A stretch of DNA of 32,000 bases. Source: Candidatus Saccharimonadota bacterium. GTDB taxonomy: Bacteria > Patescibacteriota > Microgenomatia > UBA1406 > GWC2-37-13. How positions within the stretch are numbered: the stretch's first letter is position 1; the number at the start of each line of letters is the position of its first letter. Below the pieces are notes generated by a model, which saw only the letters and a list, made by a program, of their open reading frames with translations, was not told the DNA's origin and searched no databases. The translations under genes and the position numbers were made by a program. The stretch lies in contig CP065004.1 of assembly GCA_016700135.1 (NCBI GenBank), positions 1 through 32,000 on the forward strand, in the 5' to 3' direction. This document shows positions 3,279 to 14,567 of the stretch, piece by piece.

Positions 3279-4099
3279 AAATTGCAGTAACAGGTGCAAA
3301 CGGACTAGTCGGATCACGGATAGTAGAACTTTTGAAAAGCAAGCATGACATGATTGCTTTTGAGAGTCGTGATCTTGATATTACCGATAAGCCGACAGTT
3401 TCCTCTGTACTGGGAAAAACCGAATACGATCTGCTTTTCCATTTGGCCGCATATACAAACGTTGACGGCGCGGAAACCGAAAAAGAAAAGGCACATGATG
3501 TAAATGTCAAAGGCACAAAAAATCTTTTCGACGAGGTCAGGAATGCAGGCAAAAAAATGATATATGTTTCGACGGATTTTGTATTTGATGGGAAAATTCC
3601 ACCTTTTGATGAAAAAAGTAAACCGAATCCCATCGGATACTACGGACAAACGAAGTATGAAGGAGAGCAGGTTGTGGATAATCAGGCTATGATTGTCCGC
3701 ATCAGTTATCCATATGGATACGCTTCAGAAAAGAAGCCGGATTTCGTCCAGAGACTACGGAAAATCCTTGAACACAATAAACCGATCACCATGATCGCCG
3801 ATTCAGCAATGACCCCTACCTTTATCGATGATATTGCGATGGGACTTGAATATCTAGCTACTCATTACAAACCGGAGATTTATCATCTGGTAGGTACAAA
3901 ATCATATACGCCCTTCGAAGTCGGGACTATCATTGCGAAGCACTATGAACTGCCTGAATCACTTATCATGCCGACAACTTACAAAGAATATATGAAAGGA
4001 AAAGCCGAAAGACCGCAGTATTCGATAATTATGACATCAAAGAATATCTTCACACCGATGAAGACATTTGAAGAAGGACTTGCACTTCTGGATTCCTAA
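3275..4099 (+). CDS. rfbD: dTDP-4-dehydrorhamnose reductase (RmlD-type SDR)
   Basis: The start is placed at MKIAVTGANGLVGSRI, where the ATG at 3275 overlaps the rmlB TGA (ATGA), rather than the ORF-track start at 3218. STDFVFDG and YGQTKYEGEQ (YxxxK) match the RmlD substrate-binding family. Confidence 0.82.
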   Translation: MKIAVTGANGLVGSRIVELLKSKHDMIAFESRDLDITDKPTVSSVLGKTEYDLLFHLAAYTNVDGAETEKEKAHDVNVKGTKNLFDEVRNAGKKMIYVSTDFVFDGKIPPFDEKSKPNPIGYYGQTKYEGEQVVDNQAMIVRISYPYGYASEKKPDFVQRLRKILEHNKPITMIADSAMTPTFIDDIAMGLEYLATHYKPEIYHLVGTKSYTPFEVGTIIAKHYELPESLIMPTTYKEYMKGKAERPQYSIIMTSKNIFTPMKTFEEGLALLDS

Positions 4100-4104
4100 T
4101 CGGA

Positions 4105-5562
4105 CTACACCATCTGATTCGGAATTTCTACGATTTCCCGTGTTGACTCATTCAGCAGCACAGGTACAGGCAACAACTCTTTCTGTTGTACCAGTTTTGA
4201 AAATACTGTATTGTTGAGAATCAAATTCAAAAAGTTATAGTTCACTCCCCGATATCCGGTCATTGCTTTCTCATCATTAAGGACAGCTTGCGGGACAGCG
4301 GTTACTACAAACAATACATGAGGCTTCTCAGAATTATTAGCATGCAGTACTGCGTGCTGAATTTCTGCTTGGTCCAGTGCATCCTGTTCCGTTGACGGAC
4401 TTGCCTTCAGTGTCTGGTGTCCGGGATCAAGCTGGCCGACATGTATACCGTCAAACGATATGCTTCCGTACTTCTCACCGTGTGTCGCAAGCGGATGGTG
4501 AGGATGCCCCTCATTCATATAAAATCCGAGTAAATACTGATTCGCTAAATTCCTTGCTGCTGTATAGTAAAAGGCACGAACCTGATTATCCGTAAGCAAG
4601 TTCAGATTGGAATTTCTTATATACTTCTGCAGCTCATCAATAAACGGTTTATACTCCATGAGTGTTGATGAAATATGATAATTCATATCCTCAAACGGTA
4701 TAATTGATTCAGGCATGACGAATGATTCCTTAAATAGGCCTATCTTTGAGTATTTTTTTCCGTACAGATCCTGAATGTACGGACCGAATGACGGGAAAAG
4801 CCGTTGTGCAATATCAACGGTACTGAGCGGAGTTTCTTCATCATTGCCCATAAATGTCAGTCCGAGAGTATCAGTGTCGCTTAATCCCAACACCGTAACT
4901 TTCTTCATGGTGGGAAGTCTCAATTCTTTTCTTACAGCGTTAAATGAATCCCGAATTACCGCCTTCCGTTCCTGCAGTAGTTTGATTCCCGTTTTGACCA
5001 GATTTGCATCCGCCGGCAATGTGCCGTTGTTTTCCTGCATGATTAATCGTTTCAGCGCAGCACAGCCATGATCAAGTGGGGCTGATCTTGAAGTATGAAT
5101 CTTCATGAGTTCAAATATCTCACCTTTCTGCTTTGCTACTGACAAAATGGCCGCACGCAATCTTCCCGATGCAAGATGTTTTTTTCCGTTTCTGTAGATC
5201 AAAGTCGGTATTCCTGCAGATATTGACCAACGGCTGAAAACCTTTCCGTCCTGAATGACCCGGGATTCCCGACCGTCAATACATGCAATTTTCCCCGCTC
5301 TTACGTTCGGGAACAAATTTTTTGCCAATTGAGTAAAAAGCTGGAATTCCGGTGATAAATATTTCTTTGTAATAAACTCATGTCTGCCCAGGTATGAAGA
5401 AACCCTTTCAATATTCTCTTGGGAAAGCGACGATTTTGAAGAAAAGAACTCTTTGCAATAGGAACTCAGGTATTTGGTCAGTGCCGATTTATGATGTCTG
5501 TTCAGTGCATAGCGATGTACGGAAGAATCGTTAGCGTGTTTTGTTTGATTTTTATGTTTCAT
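4105..5562 (-). CDS. Hypothetical protein with a beta-carbonic-anhydrase / CsoSCA-like (carboxysome shell CA-like) metal-site signature
   Basis: This is a 485-aa uninterrupted ORF. Motifs are C94-I-D96-G-R98, F109-S-R111-W-S-I-S-A-G117, H156-TSRSAPLDHG-C167-AA (His-x10-Cys), LGLSDTDTLGL (225-235) and HGEKYGSISFDG (361-372). From memory these resemble Halothiobacillus CsoSCA segments. The functional call is inference. Confidence 0.55.
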   Translation of the reverse strand: MKHKNQTKHANDSSVHRYALNRHHKSALTKYLSSYCKEFFSSKSSLSQENIERVSSYLGRHEFITKKYLSPEFQLFTQLAKNLFPNVRAGKIACIDGRESRVIQDGKVFSRWSISAGIPTLIYRNGKKHLASGRLRAAILSVAKQKGEIFELMKIHTSRSAPLDHGCAALKRLIMQENNGTLPADANLVKTGIKLLQERKAVIRDSFNAVRKELRLPTMKKVTVLGLSDTDTLGLTFMGNDEETPLSTVDIAQRLFPSFGPYIQDLYGKKYSKIGLFKESFVMPESIIPFEDMNYHISSTLMEYKPFIDELQKYIRNSNLNLLTDNQVRAFYYTAARNLANQYLLGFYMNEGHPHHPLATHGEKYGSISFDGIHVGQLDPGHQTLKASPSTEQDALDQAEIQHAVLHANNSEKPHVLFVVTAVPQAVLNDEKAMTGYRGVNYNFLNLILNNTVFSKLVQQKELLPVPVLLNESTREIVEIPNQMV

Positions 5563-5741
5563 ACCGGGAATTATACTCCGATTAAATAATAGTAGATAAT
5601 TTACTCCCGTACTAACCGGTTCTCAATATATCACCGATATGTATAACGCTTTTTTACTATAGCTCCTATATTTAGGCTATATTTCTCACTTTACATTAAC
5701 TTAAAAAGAAAATTAACAATATCAATTAATTCTATAAGATT

Positions 5742-6935
5742 ATGCCCCAAACTGAGTACTGTCATAACCTCGGACCTGAACAACTTTCTTCACCGGAATT
5801 GGTGACGTTGTCACCTGAGCGTCTTTACAAAGATAATCAATCGTATCCTGCATACAATGCACGGGGTGAATGGGACGACTTGCATGATAAAGGAGAACTT
5901 GATCTGATATGGGGATGTGCCGATGCCCGGCTTATTTTACCGGCAAATGCTTTTTATCTGCGATCTATCGCGGCAGCCGGTACCAGAGAGCCGTTTATCC
6001 CGCTTCTTCAGTTTTGCCGGGGAGTCACAGTTGTGGCTCATTACGATGGGGAAACTGCATTGCCCGGTGTCCGACCGAACGGGTGCGGCGGACAGGACGG
6101 GAAAGCCCATTTAGAAAAAAACGGAAATTATGATCCTCATATCCACAAAGGAGATATTACCGAATTCGTCCATAACTTAGTCACTCATGAGGACCCGGTA
6201 TTAAACGCTGTCGTAACCGCCTCACAAATTGCACGATACACTGATACTCCGACCACTGCATTGGCACAGGATCATCTCACGGGTAAAAACAAAGTACTTG
6301 CCGTTTACTCCGATCGGGGAAGATCAGTCAACAGCTGCATCCCGATCGAACAGATGATTAAAGCAATGACCCAAAATAGTTACGATCCCGAAGCGGTCTA
6401 CGCGGAAGGAGTTCCGGCACTTGATACGGGAAGTATTCCTGAGTTTATCGCTGAGTTGCTGGAAAGAAAGGAACGGGTCCTGAGAGGAATAAACAGTGCA
6501 ATACCGAACCTGCCTTCATATCAAAAAATTCAAAATCCGCACACATTGCTTATATCAACTGACCCACGACCAGCAAAAGTCAAATATCCGAACACATTCG
6601 GATTTCCGAATCAGGTTTTTGCACTGCGGGGACCGCGCATGTATCATCAGGACAGAGGTTTTCAGATCAATGAACCGGCAATAGCTGAAATCACACAACA
6701 GGCGCAGTATGCTGTAACTCATGCACTTGAACATGCACAACAGCCCGGTTCATCCTTTAGTACTCTGCGGAATATTTTTGTTGAAACCCGGCATCCGGAC
6801 TCCAGCGAAGCCATCATTCAGTCTTTGCTCTCAAAACCGTGGATGCAGGATTTTCTGGCTTTGCCGCATGCTCAAATCCTTTCCGGCATCATCGATCAGG
6901 GAATATTGCAGGATTGTCAGAAAATTACTGTATAA
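5742..6935 (+). CDS. Hypothetical protein, a divergent paralogue of the neighbouring gene, with a beta-CA-like C-x-D-x-R / His / Cys-Gly-Gly signature
   Basis: This is a 397-aa ORF. Motifs are C59-A-D61-A-R63, F71-Y-L-R74-S-I-A-A-A-G80 and H100-x14-C115-G-G. The order and spacing match the protein at 4105-5562. C-terminal helices also look related (QAQYAVTHALEHAQQP against QAEIQHAVLHANNSEKP). Confidence 0.5.
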   Translation: MPQTEYCHNLGPEQLSSPELVTLSPERLYKDNQSYPAYNARGEWDDLHDKGELDLIWGCADARLILPANAFYLRSIAAAGTREPFIPLLQFCRGVTVVAHYDGETALPGVRPNGCGGQDGKAHLEKNGNYDPHIHKGDITEFVHNLVTHEDPVLNAVVTASQIARYTDTPTTALAQDHLTGKNKVLAVYSDRGRSVNSCIPIEQMIKAMTQNSYDPEAVYAEGVPALDTGSIPEFIAELLERKERVLRGINSAIPNLPSYQKIQNPHTLLISTDPRPAKVKYPNTFGFPNQVFALRGPRMYHQDRGFQINEPAIAEITQQAQYAVTHALEHAQQPGSSFSTLRNIFVETRHPDSSEAIIQSLLSKPWMQDFLALPHAQILSGIIDQGILQDCQKITV

Positions 6936-6980
6936 TTCTGTTACTTGTTTTTTCGCGTGCAATTATATATCATTTCACAT

Positions 6981-8276
6981 ATGACAATCACATTTATCGG
7001 CCATGGTTATGTCGGCCTTGTGACAGCCTGTGTCTTCGCCGACTTCGGAAATAATGTATGGGTTGTCGGGCGTACGCCTGACAAAATCGAGCGGTTGAAG
7101 AACGGAGATCCGCTTATTTATGAACCGGGCCTCGAAGAACTCCTCCAAAAGAACCTTGAAGCCGGCCGCATCCATTTTACGTTAGATTATGACAAAGCTA
7201 TTCCCGAATCTGATGTTGTGTTTATTGCAGTGGGAACACCTCCTACATCTACCGGAGAAGCAGATCTTTCATCGGTCCTTGATGTCGCAACCAATATCGG
7301 GAAAAATCTGAAAAAAGGGTATACTGTTGTCTCATGCAAAAGTACCGTTCCTGTGGGAACGAATCTGAAAGTTGAAGAAATTCTGAACAAAGTCAAACCT
7401 GAAGGAGCCGAAGTCGACGTCGCATCCTGCCCTGAGTTTTTGCGGGAAGGAACCGCCATCAATGATACCGTGTATCCTGACCGGGTAGTAATCGGATCAA
7501 AATCTCAAAAAGCAGTTAAGAAACTCCTAGAAGTTCATAAACCTCTCCCCGGAGAACGTGTTATTACTGACTTGGCAAGTGCTGAGATAATCAAGTATGC
7601 ATCAAACGCCATGCTCGCCACCAAAATCGCTTTTGCCAATCTGATTTCCCTGTATGCAGAGAAAACGGGAGGAGATATTGAAACCATCACAAAAGCAGTC
7701 GGCGCCGATAATCGTATCGGACACAAGTTCCTCAGTGCCGGGATCGGATACGGGGGTTCATGCTTCCCGAAAGACGTCATGGCCTTGAACGAAACAGGCA
7801 AACATCTGGAACTCGACACAGGACTGCTAGATGCCGTCGAACGGATAAACAGAACAGTACGGGATAATTTTATTCATAAAGTTAACGCAAATGTGAAAGG
7901 CAAGAAACTGGCGGCCTGGGGTCTGGCATTCAAGCCGAATACGGATGATATCCGTTTCGCTCCTGCTGTTTATATTATCGAAGATCTTTTGAAAATGGGA
8001 TACGAGATTAGTGCTTTCGATCCGGCTGCCATGTCCAATGTACGGCGCACGGTCGGTGACAAAATCACATATGTTGATGACATGTACGAAGCGGTAGAAG
8101 GGGCAGATGCGCTGCTGATTTTTACTGAATGGAATGAGTTCAAACAGGCTAATCTGGAAAAAGTAAAGAAAGCACTCAGCGCTCCGCTTATTATTGACGG
8201 ACGAAATCTCTATCAACCGCAGGAAATGAAAGATCGGGGATTTACTTATATTTCTACCGGAAGACAAGCAGTATGA
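6981..8276 (+). CDS. ugd: UDP-glucose 6-dehydrogenase
   Basis: The start is placed at MTITFIGHGYVGLVTA (ATG 6981, Rossmann GxGxxG). The catalytic-Cys motif GGSCFPKD and the FKPNTDDIR motif are present. The 12 codons upstream in the ORF track have no homology. Confidence 0.92.
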   Translation: MTITFIGHGYVGLVTACVFADFGNNVWVVGRTPDKIERLKNGDPLIYEPGLEELLQKNLEAGRIHFTLDYDKAIPESDVVFIAVGTPPTSTGEADLSSVLDVATNIGKNLKKGYTVVSCKSTVPVGTNLKVEEILNKVKPEGAEVDVASCPEFLREGTAINDTVYPDRVVIGSKSQKAVKKLLEVHKPLPGERVITDLASAEIIKYASNAMLATKIAFANLISLYAEKTGGDIETITKAVGADNRIGHKFLSAGIGYGGSCFPKDVMALNETGKHLELDTGLLDAVERINRTVRDNFIHKVNANVKGKKLAAWGLAFKPNTDDIRFAPAVYIIEDLLKMGYEISAFDPAAMSNVRRTVGDKITYVDDMYEAVEGADALLIFTEWNEFKQANLEKVKKALSAPLIIDGRNLYQPQEMKDRGFTYISTGRQAV

Positions 8277-9220
8277 ATATTCTCATAACGGGAGGGTCGG
8301 GCTTTATCGGCTCTCATCTGACGAGACATTACACGAATGCAGGACATCATGTATGGGTTGTTGACAATCTCATTACCGGAAACAAAAACAATCTTGCCGG
8401 TATTTCTCCTGACCTTCTGACTTTTGTAGAGCAGGATGTCTCAACATATGACCTGAAAGATATACCTCACGTTGATATCGCCTTCAATTTGGCATCTCCC
8501 GCTTCACCAGTACAATACAAAAAACATCCGGTCGAAACAATGCTTGCCAACTCTCAGGGCAGTTATCATCTTCTGGAGTTTGCAAGAGCAGGAAAATGTG
8601 ATCGCATAGTTCTGGCTTCAACATCGGAAGTATACGGAGATCCGCTCGAACACCCACAAAAAGAAACCTACTGGGGAAACGTAAATCCTGCAGGTGAACG
8701 GTCATGTTATGATGAAGCAAAACGCTATGCAGAAGCAATAACGATGACGTATCATATGAAATACGGGACACATGTCCGCATTGCCCGTATTTTCAATACG
8801 TACGGACCGAACATGGAACTTGATGATGGCCGCGTCGTTTCCAACTTTATCACTCAGGCCATTCAGGCAAAACCGATTACGATATATGGAGACGGATCTC
8901 AGACACGATCTTTTTGCTATGTTTCGGATCTTGTGCGGGGACTGGCAGCACTCGGCGAAACCGAAGGGATTGACGGCCAAACCATTAATCTGGGAAATCC
9001 GAATGAAAAGACCGTAAAGGAACTTGCCGAAATGATCAAAAGCATGGTACAAACAGGTTCAGAAATTGTCTATCATCCGATCGGTCAGGATGATCCGAAA
9101 AAGCGCAAACCGGATATTACCAAAGCACGTGAAATGCTGAACTGGCAACCTGAAATACATCTTGAAGAAGGGCTTACAAAAACTATTGAGTACTTCAGAA
9201 GTGCTCTTCACACAATATGA
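8273..9220 (+). CDS. uxs: UDP-glucuronate decarboxylase (UDP-xylose synthase)
   Basis: It aligns almost along its whole length with the UXS pattern as I recall it: ILITGGSGFIGSHL, NLASPASP, STSEVYGDPLEHPQKETYWGNVNP, CYDEAKRYAEA, RIARIFNTYGP, DDGRVVSNFI, YGDGSQTRSFCYVSDLV. There is an ATGA overlap with ugd. Confidence 0.88.
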   Translation: MNILITGGSGFIGSHLTRHYTNAGHHVWVVDNLITGNKNNLAGISPDLLTFVEQDVSTYDLKDIPHVDIAFNLASPASPVQYKKHPVETMLANSQGSYHLLEFARAGKCDRIVLASTSEVYGDPLEHPQKETYWGNVNPAGERSCYDEAKRYAEAITMTYHMKYGTHVRIARIFNTYGPNMELDDGRVVSNFITQAIQAKPITIYGDGSQTRSFCYVSDLVRGLAALGETEGIDGQTINLGNPNEKTVKELAEMIKSMVQTGSEIVYHPIGQDDPKKRKPDITKAREMLNWQPEIHLEEGLTKTIEYFRSALHTI

Positions 9221-11367: not shown

Positions 11368-12714
11368 ATGAGAAAAAAACTTCGTTCTTTTATCCCTTAC
11401 CTCACTCTGATTATATTCCTTACAATCCTTTCGCTTATTGCCCACTCATTTCTGGAGGAAGAAAGTCATTTCATGCATGAAGTCGATTTTCAGCTTTTCG
11501 TGATAGGATCGATGCTGTTTATCGGCTACTACATCAATAGGATTGCCCCGAAAACAATAATTCCGTCTTTTGTTTGGGCAATATTTGCCGGGATGGCATT
11601 ACAACCGTTTCTGTCATTTTTTACGGAAGATGTTGAAAGTCTGAAAATTCTTATGGAGGTATTCGGAGCCATTATTCTTTTTGCCGGCGGACTTGAGATA
11701 CCGTTTCGCAATTTTCAAAAATGGTTTATGCCGATTGCCGCTTTGTCGCTTCTTGGTGTAATCATCAGTTCAGTCGGTTTTGCTTTTGTCATGTATGGGT
11801 TTATGAACCTGATGGGCAATTTTACTCCTGCACTTATTCCGTCTATCCTTATCCTCAGTGCGGCACTTGCCTCTACTGATCCGACGGCCATTATCCCGAC
11901 GCTGAAATCACTGAAATTTACCAGACCCGAGCTCAAACAAATCGCCATTTCCGAGTCAGCACTTACCGATGTCAGCGGAAGTATCTTCACCAGATTCCTG
12001 CTTCTTGCTTTGATTTCCGCTCCTGCCATGCAGACGGGAATTATCCCGTATTTTGTCCCGCTGCTTCAGAAAAGCACCTATGATGCTTTTGCTCTGCAGA
12101 TTATCTCAGGAATTCTGGTCGGATATTTCGGCTTTACTCTTATCAAAAGGTTTTACTACGGGCAGGAAAAGTCTGAAGAAGCGGATCCTGCACTTGTTCT
12201 TGCCGTACCGATATTTACGTTTGTTTTAGGGAACATACTCGGCGGGGCAGGTTTCTTAGCCGCATTTGTCAGCGGACTTCTCACTGAGGTCATCGGGGGC
12301 ATCAAAAAAATCTCTCATTTTTATGAGAGTATTCTGAATCATTTGATAAAACCGTTTATCTTTATCATTCTCGGTGCACTCGTCCCTGTCTCAACTCTTA
12401 TTCAGCTTGCACCCGTCGGCCTTGCCGCCGGTTTTATTTTTATGTTTGTGCTGCGTCCTATTGTCGTCTTTATTTCCCTAGCTCCCTGGTGGTATCAGGG
12501 AGTGTTTCAGATCAAAGATCTCGTATTTTTAAGTTTCATCCGGGAGACGGGAATCATTGCGGCAATACTTCTTGTTATTGCAGCAACCTTTGACATTATT
12601 CAGTCAGATTTTGTCATTGCGATCGGTATGTGGATCATTCTTCTTACGCTTATTCTCGAGCCTCCTCTTACTCCTCTTATCGCGAGGAAAATCGGTGTTG
12701 CCAAAGAAGCGTAA
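11368..12714 (+). CDS. Cation:proton antiporter, CPA1 (NhaP-type Na+/H+ exchanger) family
   Basis: The 448-aa protein is hydrophobic throughout, with at least 10 predicted TM segments. The ALASTDPTAIIP motif is typical of Na_H_exchanger family proteins. Confidence 0.8.
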   Translation: MRKKLRSFIPYLTLIIFLTILSLIAHSFLEEESHFMHEVDFQLFVIGSMLFIGYYINRIAPKTIIPSFVWAIFAGMALQPFLSFFTEDVESLKILMEVFGAIILFAGGLEIPFRNFQKWFMPIAALSLLGVIISSVGFAFVMYGFMNLMGNFTPALIPSILILSAALASTDPTAIIPTLKSLKFTRPELKQIAISESALTDVSGSIFTRFLLLALISAPAMQTGIIPYFVPLLQKSTYDAFALQIISGILVGYFGFTLIKRFYYGQEKSEEADPALVLAVPIFTFVLGNILGGAGFLAAFVSGLLTEVIGGIKKISHFYESILNHLIKPFIFIILGALVPVSTLIQLAPVGLAAGFIFMFVLRPIVVFISLAPWWYQGVFQIKDLVFLSFIRETGIIAAILLVIAATFDIIQSDFVIAIGMWIILLTLILEPPLTPLIARKIGVAKEA

Positions 12715-12773
12715 CATCAAAGTTTGAATTGCAGCAATGCGGTTTATCGCACCATTCCATCCGTGTTTATGGT

Positions 12774-14567
12774 ATGATTGAACTCATGACAAAGGAAAAA
12801 ATCCGTCAAAAAATCTCACGGGCTTTGCAAAAAATGGGAATGCCGACTGAAATGCTGAATGTTTCGGCTCCTGCACAGGAAGGGTTCGGAGATTACTCCG
12901 TATCGGTTGCTTTACAACTTGCAAAAACAACAAAAAGAAACCCTATGGAGATTGCCCAGGAAATAGCAGACAATATCGAAAAGGATGGGTTGATCGAGAA
13001 AGTGGAAGTTATGAAACCTGGATTTATCAATCTCTGGATTTCAAAAGATAAGTTACTGAATACTCTCCAAAATATCGATTCATCATTCGGAAACAACATC
13101 ACGTATCAGGGTAAAAGTATCATTGTAGAGTATTCCTCTCCGAACATCGCGAAGCCCTTTACGGTCGGACATCTCAGATCAACAATCATCGGTGACGCAG
13201 TAGCAAATCTGTTGTCTGCAACCGGTGCGACGGTATTTCGGGATAATCACCTCGGTGATTGGGGGACACAATTCGGAAAGCAAATATATGCGATCAAAAC
13301 ATGGGGAAACGAACAGCAAATTGAACTATCCGACAATCCGGTGAAAGAACTGGTGGCTCTCTATGTCAAATTCCATGAAGAAGCAGAGAAAGACCCGAAG
13401 ATTGAGGAAGAAGGAAGGAAATGGTTTAAGAAACTGGAAGAAGGAGATGAGGAAGCACGCCGTCTGTGGAAAAAATGTATCGATTGGTCATGGAAGGAGT
13501 TCAATAAAATATATGAAAAACTCGGTATATCATTCACAGAAAATGAAGGAAGAGGATACGGAGAGTCATTTTTTGAAGATAAAATGCAGCCCGTGATTGC
13601 TGAACTCCGCAAAAAAAATCTTCTGAAAGAAAGTAAAGGAGCTGAACTGGTGTTTTATCCTGATGACAAGCTCCCGCCACTTATGATTATCAAACAGGAC
13701 GGTGCGACATTGTACTCTACCCGTGATCTTGCCACTGATAAATTCCGACTGGAAAATCCCCGTTACGGGCAGGAAGTCATGATCATCAATGAAGTCGGAG
13801 CCGAACAGGCATTGTACTTCAAACAAATTTTTGAGCTTGAACAAATGCTCGGCTGGACAAAAGAAGGACAACGCATCCATATCAAGCACGGAATGTACCG
13901 ATTTAAGGATATGAAAATGTCCACGAGAAAAGGAAATACGATCTGGCTTGAGGATGTACTTGAGGAGGCAACGAAACGGGCTTTTGAACTAAGTAAGCAT
14001 GAAAGCAAATTTGAAGGATCTGAAGTGGTTTCCATTAACAATAAACACTCAGATTCTGCTAAAAAGAACATCATGGGTTTTGGCTTAAGAAGTAACGTCG
14101 CAGAAAAAGTAGGTATCGGCGCCATCAAATGGAATGATCTGAAAAGAAGCTCTCATCTGGATATCGTTTTTGATTGGGATGAGATTCTGAATATGCAGGG
14201 GAATTCCGGTCCATATGTCCAGTACACGTATGTCCGCTGTAAGTCAGTACTGAATAAAGTGAGCGTCGTCCCGAGCGAAGTCGAGGGATCCCTTTCATTC
14301 CACGAAGAAGAAACGGCAATTCTTCGCACTCTGATCAAATACCCTGAAGTTGTGACTGATGCCGCCAACAACTTTGCACCGAATTATATCACGACTTATC
14401 TGTACGATCTGTCACAGAAATATAATCTTTTTTATCAGAAGCATCAGATACTGAAAGAAAAGAAAGAAGATACAAGAAACTTCAGAATACTCCTTACGGA
14501 AAAAGTAGCCACAGTCCTTTCACACGGACTTTCCCTCCTCGGTATCGAGACCGTAGAGAAGATGTAA
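12774..14567 (+). CDS. argS: Arginine--tRNA ligase
   Basis: Motifs are MKPGFINLWIS, SSPNIAKPFTVGHLRSTIIGD (HIGH-equivalent), MSTRKG (KMSKS-equivalent) and a DALR-type C-terminus ending in M. The start is placed at ATG 12774 (12786 is an alternative). The ORF-track start at 12630 overlaps the antiporter and has no homology. Confidence 0.93.
   Translation: MIELMTKEKIRQKISRALQKMGMPTEMLNVSAPAQEGFGDYSVSVALQLAKTTKRNPMEIAQEIADNIEKDGLIEKVEVMKPGFINLWISKDKLLNTLQNIDSSFGNNITYQGKSIIVEYSSPNIAKPFTVGHLRSTIIGDAVANLLSATGATVFRDNHLGDWGTQFGKQIYAIKTWGNEQQIELSDNPVKELVALYVKFHEEAEKDPKIEEEGRKWFKKLEEGDEEARRLWKKCIDWSWKEFNKIYEKLGISFTENEGRGYGESFFEDKMQPVIAELRKKNLLKESKGAELVFYPDDKLPPLMIIKQDGATLYSTRDLATDKFRLENPRYGQEVMIINEVGAEQALYFKQIFELEQMLGWTKEGQRIHIKHGMYRFKDMKMSTRKGNTIWLEDVLEEATKRAFELSKHESKFEGSEVVSINNKHSDSAKKNIMGFGLRSNVAEKVGIGAIKWNDLKRSSHLDIVFDWDEILNMQGNSGPYVQYTYVRCKSVLNKVSVVPSEVEGSLSFHEEETAILRTLIKYPEVVTDAANNFAPNYITTYLYDLSQKYNLFYQKHQILKEKKEDTRNFRILLTEKVATVLSHGLSLLGIETVEKM

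Follow-up and report, generated by a model that had tools for sequence, protein, structure and literature searches.

A putative carbonic anhydrase with a fused, probably pseudo-dimeric architecture and a long His-to-Cys loop from an unnamed branch of the beta-carbonic-anhydrase superfamily

The window analyzed here is a 32,000-nucleotide (nt) stretch of DNA, positions 1 to 32,000 of contig CP065004.1 from a Candidatus Saccharimonadota bacterium (assembly GCA_016700135.1). It contains an open reading frame (ORF) of 397 residues, hereafter the target, that an earlier note, made from the sequence alone, had described as a divergent relative of the beta-carbonic anhydrases (beta-CAs) with a long loop between the His and the second Cys of a predicted zinc site. 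We propose, with a probability of roughly 60%, that the target is a cytoplasmic enzyme of the beta-CA superfamily in which one chain forms a pseudo-dimer, with a zinc site in the N-terminal domain and a functional link to a divergently oriented beta-CA-like gene. As judged from the conserved motifs, the best reading of its activity is that of a carbonic anhydrase of a new subclass. The target family, comprising about 200 clusters of sequences found on low-GC contigs of metagenomes, is an unnamed branch of the beta-CA superfamily; the low GC content of the related contigs suggests that these sequences come from bacteria of the candidate phyla radiation (CPR). The ORF and the elements of its N-terminal half are as follows.

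5742-6935, plus strand: complete target ORF of 397 amino acids from the ORF list, from the ATG at 5742 to the TAA at 6933-6935.
5799-6386, plus strand: N-terminal beta-CA-like domain (residues ~20-215, boundary approximate) with the putative zinc site, delimited from the AlphaFold2 secondary structure, the family profile aligned to the beta-CA 7cxw and the hhalign alignment to Pro_CA_2.
5916-5930, plus strand: C59-A-D61-A-R63, the predicted first zinc ligand and Asp-Arg dyad, assigned by conservation and by alignment to CSDSR of 7cxw and CMDGR of Pro_CA_2.
6039-6092, plus strand: H100-YDGETALPGVRPNG-C115-G-G, the second and third predicted zinc ligands with a loop of 14 residues between them; H100 and C115 are both present in 96/96 aligned family members.

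Three motifs had been picked out in the translation: W-G-C59-A-D61-A-R63-L, with the CADAR codons at nt 5916-5930, F71-Y-L-R74-S-I-A-A-A-G80 at nt 5952-5981, and V-V-A-H100-YDGETALPGVRPNG-C115-G-G at nt 6039-6092. Re-reading of the translation placed each motif residue at its given position, with a spacing of exactly His-x14-Cys. An exhaustive homologue search using phmmer (HMMER) against 1.84 billion representative proteins revealed 215 matches at E<=1e-3, of which 186 also pass E<=1e-10 and 86 pass E<=1e-30; the majority of the 150 matches listed are 370-410 residues long and align end to end. A word-indexed search with the target found only one copy, 98% identical and in the same synteny, and its repetition with the family alignment returned two proteins. 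The family alignment, composed of the target and 95 phmmer matches (96 sequences in total), has a mean column identity of 25%, within which C59, D61, H100, C115 and F339 are invariant. R63 (94/96), G116 (93/96) and G117 (90/96) follow closely, and D151, H178, Y220, P225, Q264, P266, F293, Q320, Y323, T349 and G387 are also at least 90% conserved. The proposed ligands and the dyad Asp are thus fixed rather than freely variable among the homologues. The middle motif F71...G80 fared less well: it is present, and I76 (81/96) and A77 (75/96) are conserved, but F71, R74 and G80 vary, each being kept in less than 70% of the members.

The AlphaFold2 model of the target, predicted with the family alignment as input, has a mean predicted local distance difference test score (pLDDT) of 95 and a predicted TM-score (pTM) of 0.93. 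Structural similarity search against the Protein Data Bank (PDB) using Foldseek revealed that the best 15 matches of this confident model are all beta-CAs, with probabilities of 0.82-1.0. The top match is the tandem enzyme of Porphyridium purpureum (1ddz_A), with an E-value of 2.7e-10, a probability of 1.0 and a query-normalized TM-score (TMq) of 0.43 over 502 aligned columns, followed by Rv3588c, psCA3, the Haemophilus influenzae carbonic anhydrase and Can2 at E-values of 2.5e-4 to ~1e-2. The single-domain beta-CAs span about half of the model (TMq 0.22-0.27; match-normalized score, TMt, 0.42-0.46), and 1ddz spans about twice that. The model itself has the order helix-strand-strand-helix-strand-helix-strand-strand twice, at residues ~25-200 and ~234-394. 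The Porphyridium enzyme likewise consists of two fused beta-CA-like domains and gives the best structural match across the two halves, but it shares only 14% sequence identity with the target and has zinc sites with HxxC spacing in both of its halves, whereas the ligands of the target are found in the N-domain only. As the best match of the confident model is this tandem two-domain enzyme, the target is most likely a single-chain pseudo-dimer, with a zinc-site N-domain and a degenerate C-domain.

Compared to the canonical beta-CAs (PF00484; 7cxw, Rv3588c (2a5v), psCA3 (4rxy/5bq1)), the target has the same alpha/beta fold, with the N-terminal LxxN helix, the CxDxR motif, the (R)xIA strand and the V-x-x-H strand followed by C-G-G, so that the Cys/His/Cys and Asp-Arg set appears in the same order. 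The match of the family profile to the beta-CA 7cxw, weak as it is (E 0.5), runs in register up to the His, pairing the LxxN helices, CsDARv with CSDSRV, irsIA with HRNIAN and vvlgH with VVCGH, and it stops before C115. Furthermore, hhalign of the family against a Pro_CA_2 set (probability 27-35%, E 4e-4 to 7e-4) aligned C59, D61, R63, H100 and C115 to CMDGR and HGHxxC. Pro_CA_2 (PF20393, 'putative carbonic anhydrase') has its CxD(G)R and H...C in register with the target N-domain, but it is a single domain of ~130 residues with HGHxxC, a neighbor of the target family rather than a member; hmmscan found no PF20393 match for the target or the family members. The target departs from the canonical enzymes by its His-x14-Cys in place of HxxC, by an N-domain with no Gln ahead of the first Cys, and by having one chain that includes a ligand-less second domain where those enzymes form a homodimer. 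Altogether, the Foldseek matches, the invariant residues and the in-register profiles bear out the proposal of a beta-CA-like protein with its ligands in canonical order and a long His-to-Cys loop. As for LCIB-type proteins, Pfam gave no match for the target or its family and none of the 50 Foldseek matches listed is an LCIB entry, no dedicated comparison having been made.

The degenerate half of the protein contains two conserved stretches.

6387-6932, plus strand: C-terminal domain (residues ~216-397, boundary approximate), degenerate and beta-CA-like, without metal ligands, assigned by the repeated secondary-structure order and the 1ddz_A match.
6522-6572, plus strand: Q261-K-I-Q264-N-P266-HTLLI-S272-T273-D-P-R276-P, a probable relic of the 'GQxP...CxDxR' strand, by conservation and motif analogy.
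6774-6788, plus strand: I345-F-V347-E348-T349, the putative counterpart of the His-bearing strand with its ligand lost, by conservation and the model strand at residues 344-349.

No Cys or His occupies a ligand position in the C-domain. Instead, the family keeps the pattern Q261-x-V-Q264-N-P266-x5-[ST]272-T273-x2-[RK]276-P along with I/V347-E348-T349. Column 264 is Gln in 87/96 and His in 3/96 members (together 90/96), P266 is found in 91/96, column 272 is Ser or Thr in 88/96, and E348 and T349 are kept in 80/96 and 89/96, respectively. By analogy, the Q-N-P...[ST]-T...R-P stretch and the I-E-T strand are probable relics of the GQxP...CxDxR and His strands of a beta-CA domain; hhalign between the N-half and the C-half of the target family gave no significant signal of an internal duplication. 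Beta-CAs stabilize the transition state through a conserved Gln or His contributed from across the dimer interface, which in PSCA, the pea enzyme, is Gln151, and the equivalent residue in DabA2 is Leu658, which sits in the other beta-CA-like domain (PMC13144422). As the N-domain of the target has no such Gln and the C-domain keeps Gln or His in 90/96 members, we infer a role for Q264 in the N-domain site; judged from motif analogy, it would be a candidate for the Gln extending into the active site of the partner domain.

On this basis, we propose that one zinc ion would be held by C59, H100 and C115 of the N-domain, and that the dyad of D61 and R63 would orient and deprotonate the zinc-bound water to interconvert CO2 and bicarbonate. 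The ligand-less C-domain would stand in for the second subunit found in ordinary beta-CA dimers, and it would probably supply Q264. The loop between H100 and C115 varies greatly in the family. The x14 spacing is the commonest (73/96) with the consensus [YFH]-D-G-x-T-x-x-P-G-x-x-P-x-G, and the range extends from x2 to x24; three full-length members (P0111, P0137 and P0152) have a canonical-like spacing, x2 in 2/96 and x3 in 1/96. When aligned to HGHxxC of Pro_CA_2 by hhalign, the target loop appears as a 12-residue insertion. Given these three x2/x3 members, the others of up to x24 and the Pro_CA_2 alignment, the long loop is best explained as a length-variable insertion into the canonical HxxC turn. 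In the proposed mechanism, the 14-residue loop would be a lineage-specific insertion, probably folding into a flap close to the site.

The earlier note had equated His-x14-Cys with the spacing of H524 and C539 in DabA. This is correct, as the ligands and dyad of DabA2 are C351, D353, R355, H524 and C539; DabA2 consists of a 280-residue helical domain and a pair of beta-CA-like domains, with a single zinc placed in domain I close to the domain interface, and domain I bears a membrane-inserting helix-loop-helix finger (PMC13144422). The two proteins were set side by side by sequence and description, the fold library in use predating the DAB2 structures. Like the target, DabA2 (cytoplasmic subunit in the DAB2 CO2-uptake complex, 9RD0) has two fused beta-CA-like domains, a Cys2His plus Asp-Arg set and His-x14-Cys, and these shared features, together with the single zinc of DabA2 in domain I, could mark the target as the minimal core of a DabA-like 'vectorial' carbonic anhydrase, dependent on a proton-conducting partner in the membrane. 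We consider this very unlikely. The loop in H524-GSSTTNNPHRAGLD-C539, taken from the AlphaFold file of that paper, is identical to YDGETALPGVRPNG of the target at only 2/14 positions, which speaks against homology of the two loops. Moreover, the loop of the target family ranges from 2 to 24 residues. The target also lacks the 280-residue helical N-domain, its beta-CA N-helix starting at about residue 25, and it has no room for the membrane finger, given the 41 residues with one short helix from C59 to H100 as against the span from C351 to H524. In addition, a Gln is kept at the column probably equivalent to Leu658, which is strictly conserved in DabA2. Pfam DUF2309 gave no match to the target at E<=10, nor was it among 25/29 families listed for the 96 members at E<=1. 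The target is far shorter than DabA, as had been noted, being about half the length of DabA2. It has no DabB/NuoL-like gene beside it, its neighbors in the window encoding a CsoSCA-like protein and a UDP-glucose dehydrogenase; across 30 family loci there is no conserved membrane-protein neighbor either. Considering the 2/14 loop identity, the x2-x24 range and the absence of the DabA features, the equal spacing probably reflects coincidence, or else convergence, and is not diagnostic of kinship to DabA.

The genomic context of the family was compared over 30 distinct family proteins, combining pattern loci with loci from an exact protein look-up. The pattern, a back-translation of the loop, was searched against metagenome contigs and hit 79 loci, namely 30 with a family member (GC 34-45%) and 49 chance matches in high-GC DNA. 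The upstream neighbors in the context set are as follows.

18 loci: Pro_CA_2 protein of ~130 residues (GCMDGR...HGHxxCAGNP), divergent and immediately upstream.
1 locus, the window: CsoSCA-like protein of 485 residues.
2 loci: member of a 285/298-residue family with CVD[PG]R and H-x11-13-CGH.
3 loci: upstream sequence too short to judge.
6 loci: no partner seen.

A divergent upstream CxDxR protein is therefore found in 21/27 assessable loci. The Pro_CA_2 assignment is exemplified by locus L010, with an E-value of 1e-29 to PF20393, and Pro_CA_2 is the sole recurrent neighbor across the 30 loci; the flanking genes otherwise vary, including those for ATP synthase, ribosomal proteins and nucleotide-sugar enzymes. 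The 285/298-residue proteins (L008, 1499-2356, minus strand; L073, 2049-2942) match each other by BLASTP at 2e-16, have no Pfam match and align in register with the target family in a weak hhalign comparison (8% probability). At four of the six partnerless loci (L039, L076, L090 and L097), a queuine tRNA-ribosyltransferase-like (Tgt) gene lies upstream and a formyltransferase-like (Fmt) gene downstream, both identified by eye from sequence, and no beta-CA-like partner is present in the sequence available. As the flanks otherwise differ and the partner type changes, the conserved unit is a target-family gene with some small, divergently encoded CxDxR protein. The pairing proposed for the window thus generalizes to a divergent beta-CA-like gene, mostly Pro_CA_2, whereas the particular 485-residue partner occurs only in the window lineage. 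Accordingly, our model has the target gene functionally linked to a divergent second beta-CA-like gene, which would usually encode the ~130-residue Pro_CA_2 and in the window the 485-residue CsoSCA-like protein. In locus L092, the Pro_CA_2/target-family pair is directly followed downstream by a biotin-carboxylase-like gene (5614-7080, minus strand), which matches an AccC subfamily model at E 1.6e-115 without reaching the cutoff of the model, a suggestive placement of a likely bicarbonate consumer beside a putative carbonic anhydrase module.

The frequent pairing raises the alternative that the target is a non-catalytic or regulatory subunit, with a structural or sensing zinc site, in a hetero-oligomer with the divergently encoded beta-CA-like protein as the catalyst. 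A second beta-CA-like gene lies divergently upstream at 21/27 assessable loci, the partners carry intact CxDGR and H...C sites of their own, and catalytically silent beta-CA-like domains have precedents in CsoSCA (PMC12646314) and DabA2 (PMC13144422). However, a purely structural site would have no need of an Asp-Arg dyad that is invariant or nearly so, nor of the conserved Gln/His candidate. Six loci have no partner at all, and the shift of partner type among Pro_CA_2, the 285/298-residue and the 485-residue proteins is hard to square with a specific co-evolved interface. We therefore regard a regulatory role as unlikely. The earlier note had left the choice between an active enzyme and a zinc-retaining regulatory paralogue; the fully conserved catalytic set favors the former, and both the regulatory and the paralogue parts of the latter are disfavored.

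The paralogue question concerns the divergent neighbor in the window.

4105-5562, minus strand: divergent neighbor of 485 residues, CsoSCA-like beta-CA fold, with C94-I-D96-G-R98 and H156-x10-C167 (AlphaFold2 and Foldseek).
5563-5741, no strand: AT-rich intergenic spacer of the divergent pair, 179 bp, read from the sequence.

Scans of this neighbor against Pfam, NCBIfam and PDB sequences gave no significant match. Its family has ten members at 54-100% identity, including proteins named Roizmanbacteria and Woesebacteria, with C94, D96, R98, H156 and C167 invariant; it adjoins the target family only in the window lineage and is never beside other target-family members. Its AlphaFold2 model is mediocre (pLDDT 66), and Foldseek ranks full-length CsoSCA structures first, namely 2fgy (E 4e-8, TM-score 0.50), 9g4t and 8thm (E-values up to 8e-6), followed by 1ddz. 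The neighbor has the His-x10-Cys spacing of CsoSCA, the carbonic anhydrase of alpha-carboxysomes, which is H242-x10-C253 (PMC12646314); the 32,000-nt window contains no carboxysome genes. Compared to CsoSCA, the target likewise joins a putative catalytic beta-CA domain to a degenerate beta-CA-like C-domain that would be non-catalytic, and it has an enlarged His-to-Cys spacing, but it lacks the helical N-terminal domain, its loop is x14 instead of x10, and CsoSCA is absent among the 50 Foldseek matches listed for it. The order of elements in the target is that of the beta-CAs, as had been read from the sequence, and its loop differs in length from that of the neighbor (x14 versus x10). Close paralogy of the two proteins did not hold, since BLASTP between them found nothing and hhalign gave only 5% probability, over one C-terminal helix-strand stretch; what they have in common is the superfamily fold. 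They are distant members of one superfamily, each of the fused catalytic-plus-degenerate type, and not recent paralogues. If anything, the target is the closer of the two to the canonical beta-CAs. A promoter and terminator scan found nothing above shuffled sequence, promoter-like sites in the 179-bp spacer being no commoner than in shuffled sequence.

Several observations weigh against our assignment of the target. Scans of the target against Pfam, NCBIfam and PDB sequences returned nothing significant, and the family as a whole had no NCBIfam match. Pfam PF00484 (Pro_CA) gave no target match at E<=10 and matched only 3/96 members, with a best E-value of 0.069, and the PDB profile match of the family, to 7cxw, reached an E-value of only 0.5. 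The TM-scores of the Foldseek matches are modest, below 0.5 (TMt 0.32-0.46 for the beta-CAs), and the root mean square deviations are large. In canonical beta-CAs a Gln precedes the first Cys, and the N-domain of the target has none. The long loop in place of the HxxC turn could alter the chemistry or, by analogy to DabA2, gate the site. Finally, pairing is not obligatory, with no partner at 6/27 assessable loci. The want of database annotation is also the sole point in favor of reading the motif as a product of chance in an ORF that is unrelated or spurious, an explanation refuted by the 215 homologues, the invariant motif residues, the confident beta-CA-fold model and the conserved synteny, and hardly credible as a result. 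Keyword searches of the literature on the target family, Pro_CA_2 and the carbonic anhydrases of CPR/Patescibacteria found no paper on the target family.

The preferred reading, an active cytoplasmic carbonic anhydrase, is drawn from the conserved Cys/His/Cys set, Asp-Arg dyad and candidate Gln, from an N-terminus without a hydrophobic stretch and from the variable housekeeping genes in the flanks. The N-terminus, MPQTEY..., has no hydrophobic stretch by eye, no signal-peptide predictor having been run, and the first ~20 residues are of low confidence in the model. The beta-CA fold also hosts carbonyl sulfide (COS) and carbon disulfide (CS2) hydrolases, which keep the Cys/His/Cys and Asp-Arg set. 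The target might thus act on such a small substrate or in another reaction, with the loop and the C-domain reshaping the access tunnel: the motifs by themselves do not distinguish these activities, the metal site is adjoined by a conserved 14-residue loop, and two carbonic-anhydrase-like genes side by side could mean different substrates. Yet no sulfur-metabolism genes were seen at the 30 loci, where the flanks are variable and housekeeping in nature, and no COS or CS2 hydrolase is among the 50 Foldseek matches listed, which leaves another substrate quite improbable.

Turning to the surroundings of the pair, the window genes sit in a nucleotide-sugar cluster encoding RmlB, RmlD, UDP-glucose dehydrogenase, a short-chain dehydrogenase/reductase (SDR) resembling UDP-glucuronate decarboxylases, and GT2-GtrA, a context that is not conserved outside the window lineage. 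Downstream of the target, the UDP-glucose 6-dehydrogenase gene (6945-8276, plus strand) is followed by the extended SDR gene (8273-9220, plus strand), a synteny found also at L008 and L108 and not in the rest of the target family. Among the closest NCBIfam matches of the SDR are UDP-xylose synthase and the decarboxylase portion of ArnA. Judged from these matches, the SDR may be a CO2-releasing UDP-glucuronate decarboxylase, encoded two genes from the target. A related genome (L003) carries a neighbor homologue of 75% identity in the same nucleotide-sugar synteny, with the slot of the target occupied by a 258-residue protein (4009-4785, minus strand) that has GCMDRD...LLLAGGG...GHNHKCG and adjoins an IS66 transposase. 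A partial relative with CMDRR is encoded at L046 (3-365) just downstream of a target-family gene, and the two may represent a further beta-CA-like family. A link to ion transporters was considered and rejected, the Na+/H+ exchanger of the window being unrelated to the membrane proteins beside the neighbor homologues. The ORF of this exchanger (11368-12714, plus strand) is overlapped by 85 nt by the arginyl-tRNA synthetase ORF (12630-14567, plus strand; GTG start at 12630), the true start of which is probably further downstream.

What is new about the target, within a superfamily that is already known, is its unannotated family, its probable fused pseudo-dimer architecture, the long His-to-Cys loop of variable length and the conserved presence of a second carbonic-anhydrase-like gene. 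Most likely, the chemistry is ordinary carbonic anhydrase chemistry, of relevance mainly to carbonic anhydrase and CPR specialists, and involves no new principle. A bolder, rather doubtful extension is that a target-family protein and the second beta-CA-like protein encoded back to back with it act together as an inorganic-carbon-handling system of two components, possibly heteromeric, which the contigs suggest to be CPR-specific; the fused pseudo-dimer, its long loop being gated, would then be a soluble relative of the DabA-type latent core, controlled by the partner instead of a membrane subunit. The target family would be the fourth independent case of two fused beta-CA domains with one site kept, after the Porphyridium enzyme, CsoSCA and DabA, and its natural series of loops from x2 to x24 offers a ready system for probing the role of the His-to-Cys loop. 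As no Pfam or NCBIfam model recognizes the family, genomes that possess only a target-family protein would at present score as lacking a carbonic anhydrase. The back-to-back pairing with Pro_CA_2, which is itself uncharacterized, provides a testable handle on CO2 and bicarbonate handling in organisms of minimal metabolism.

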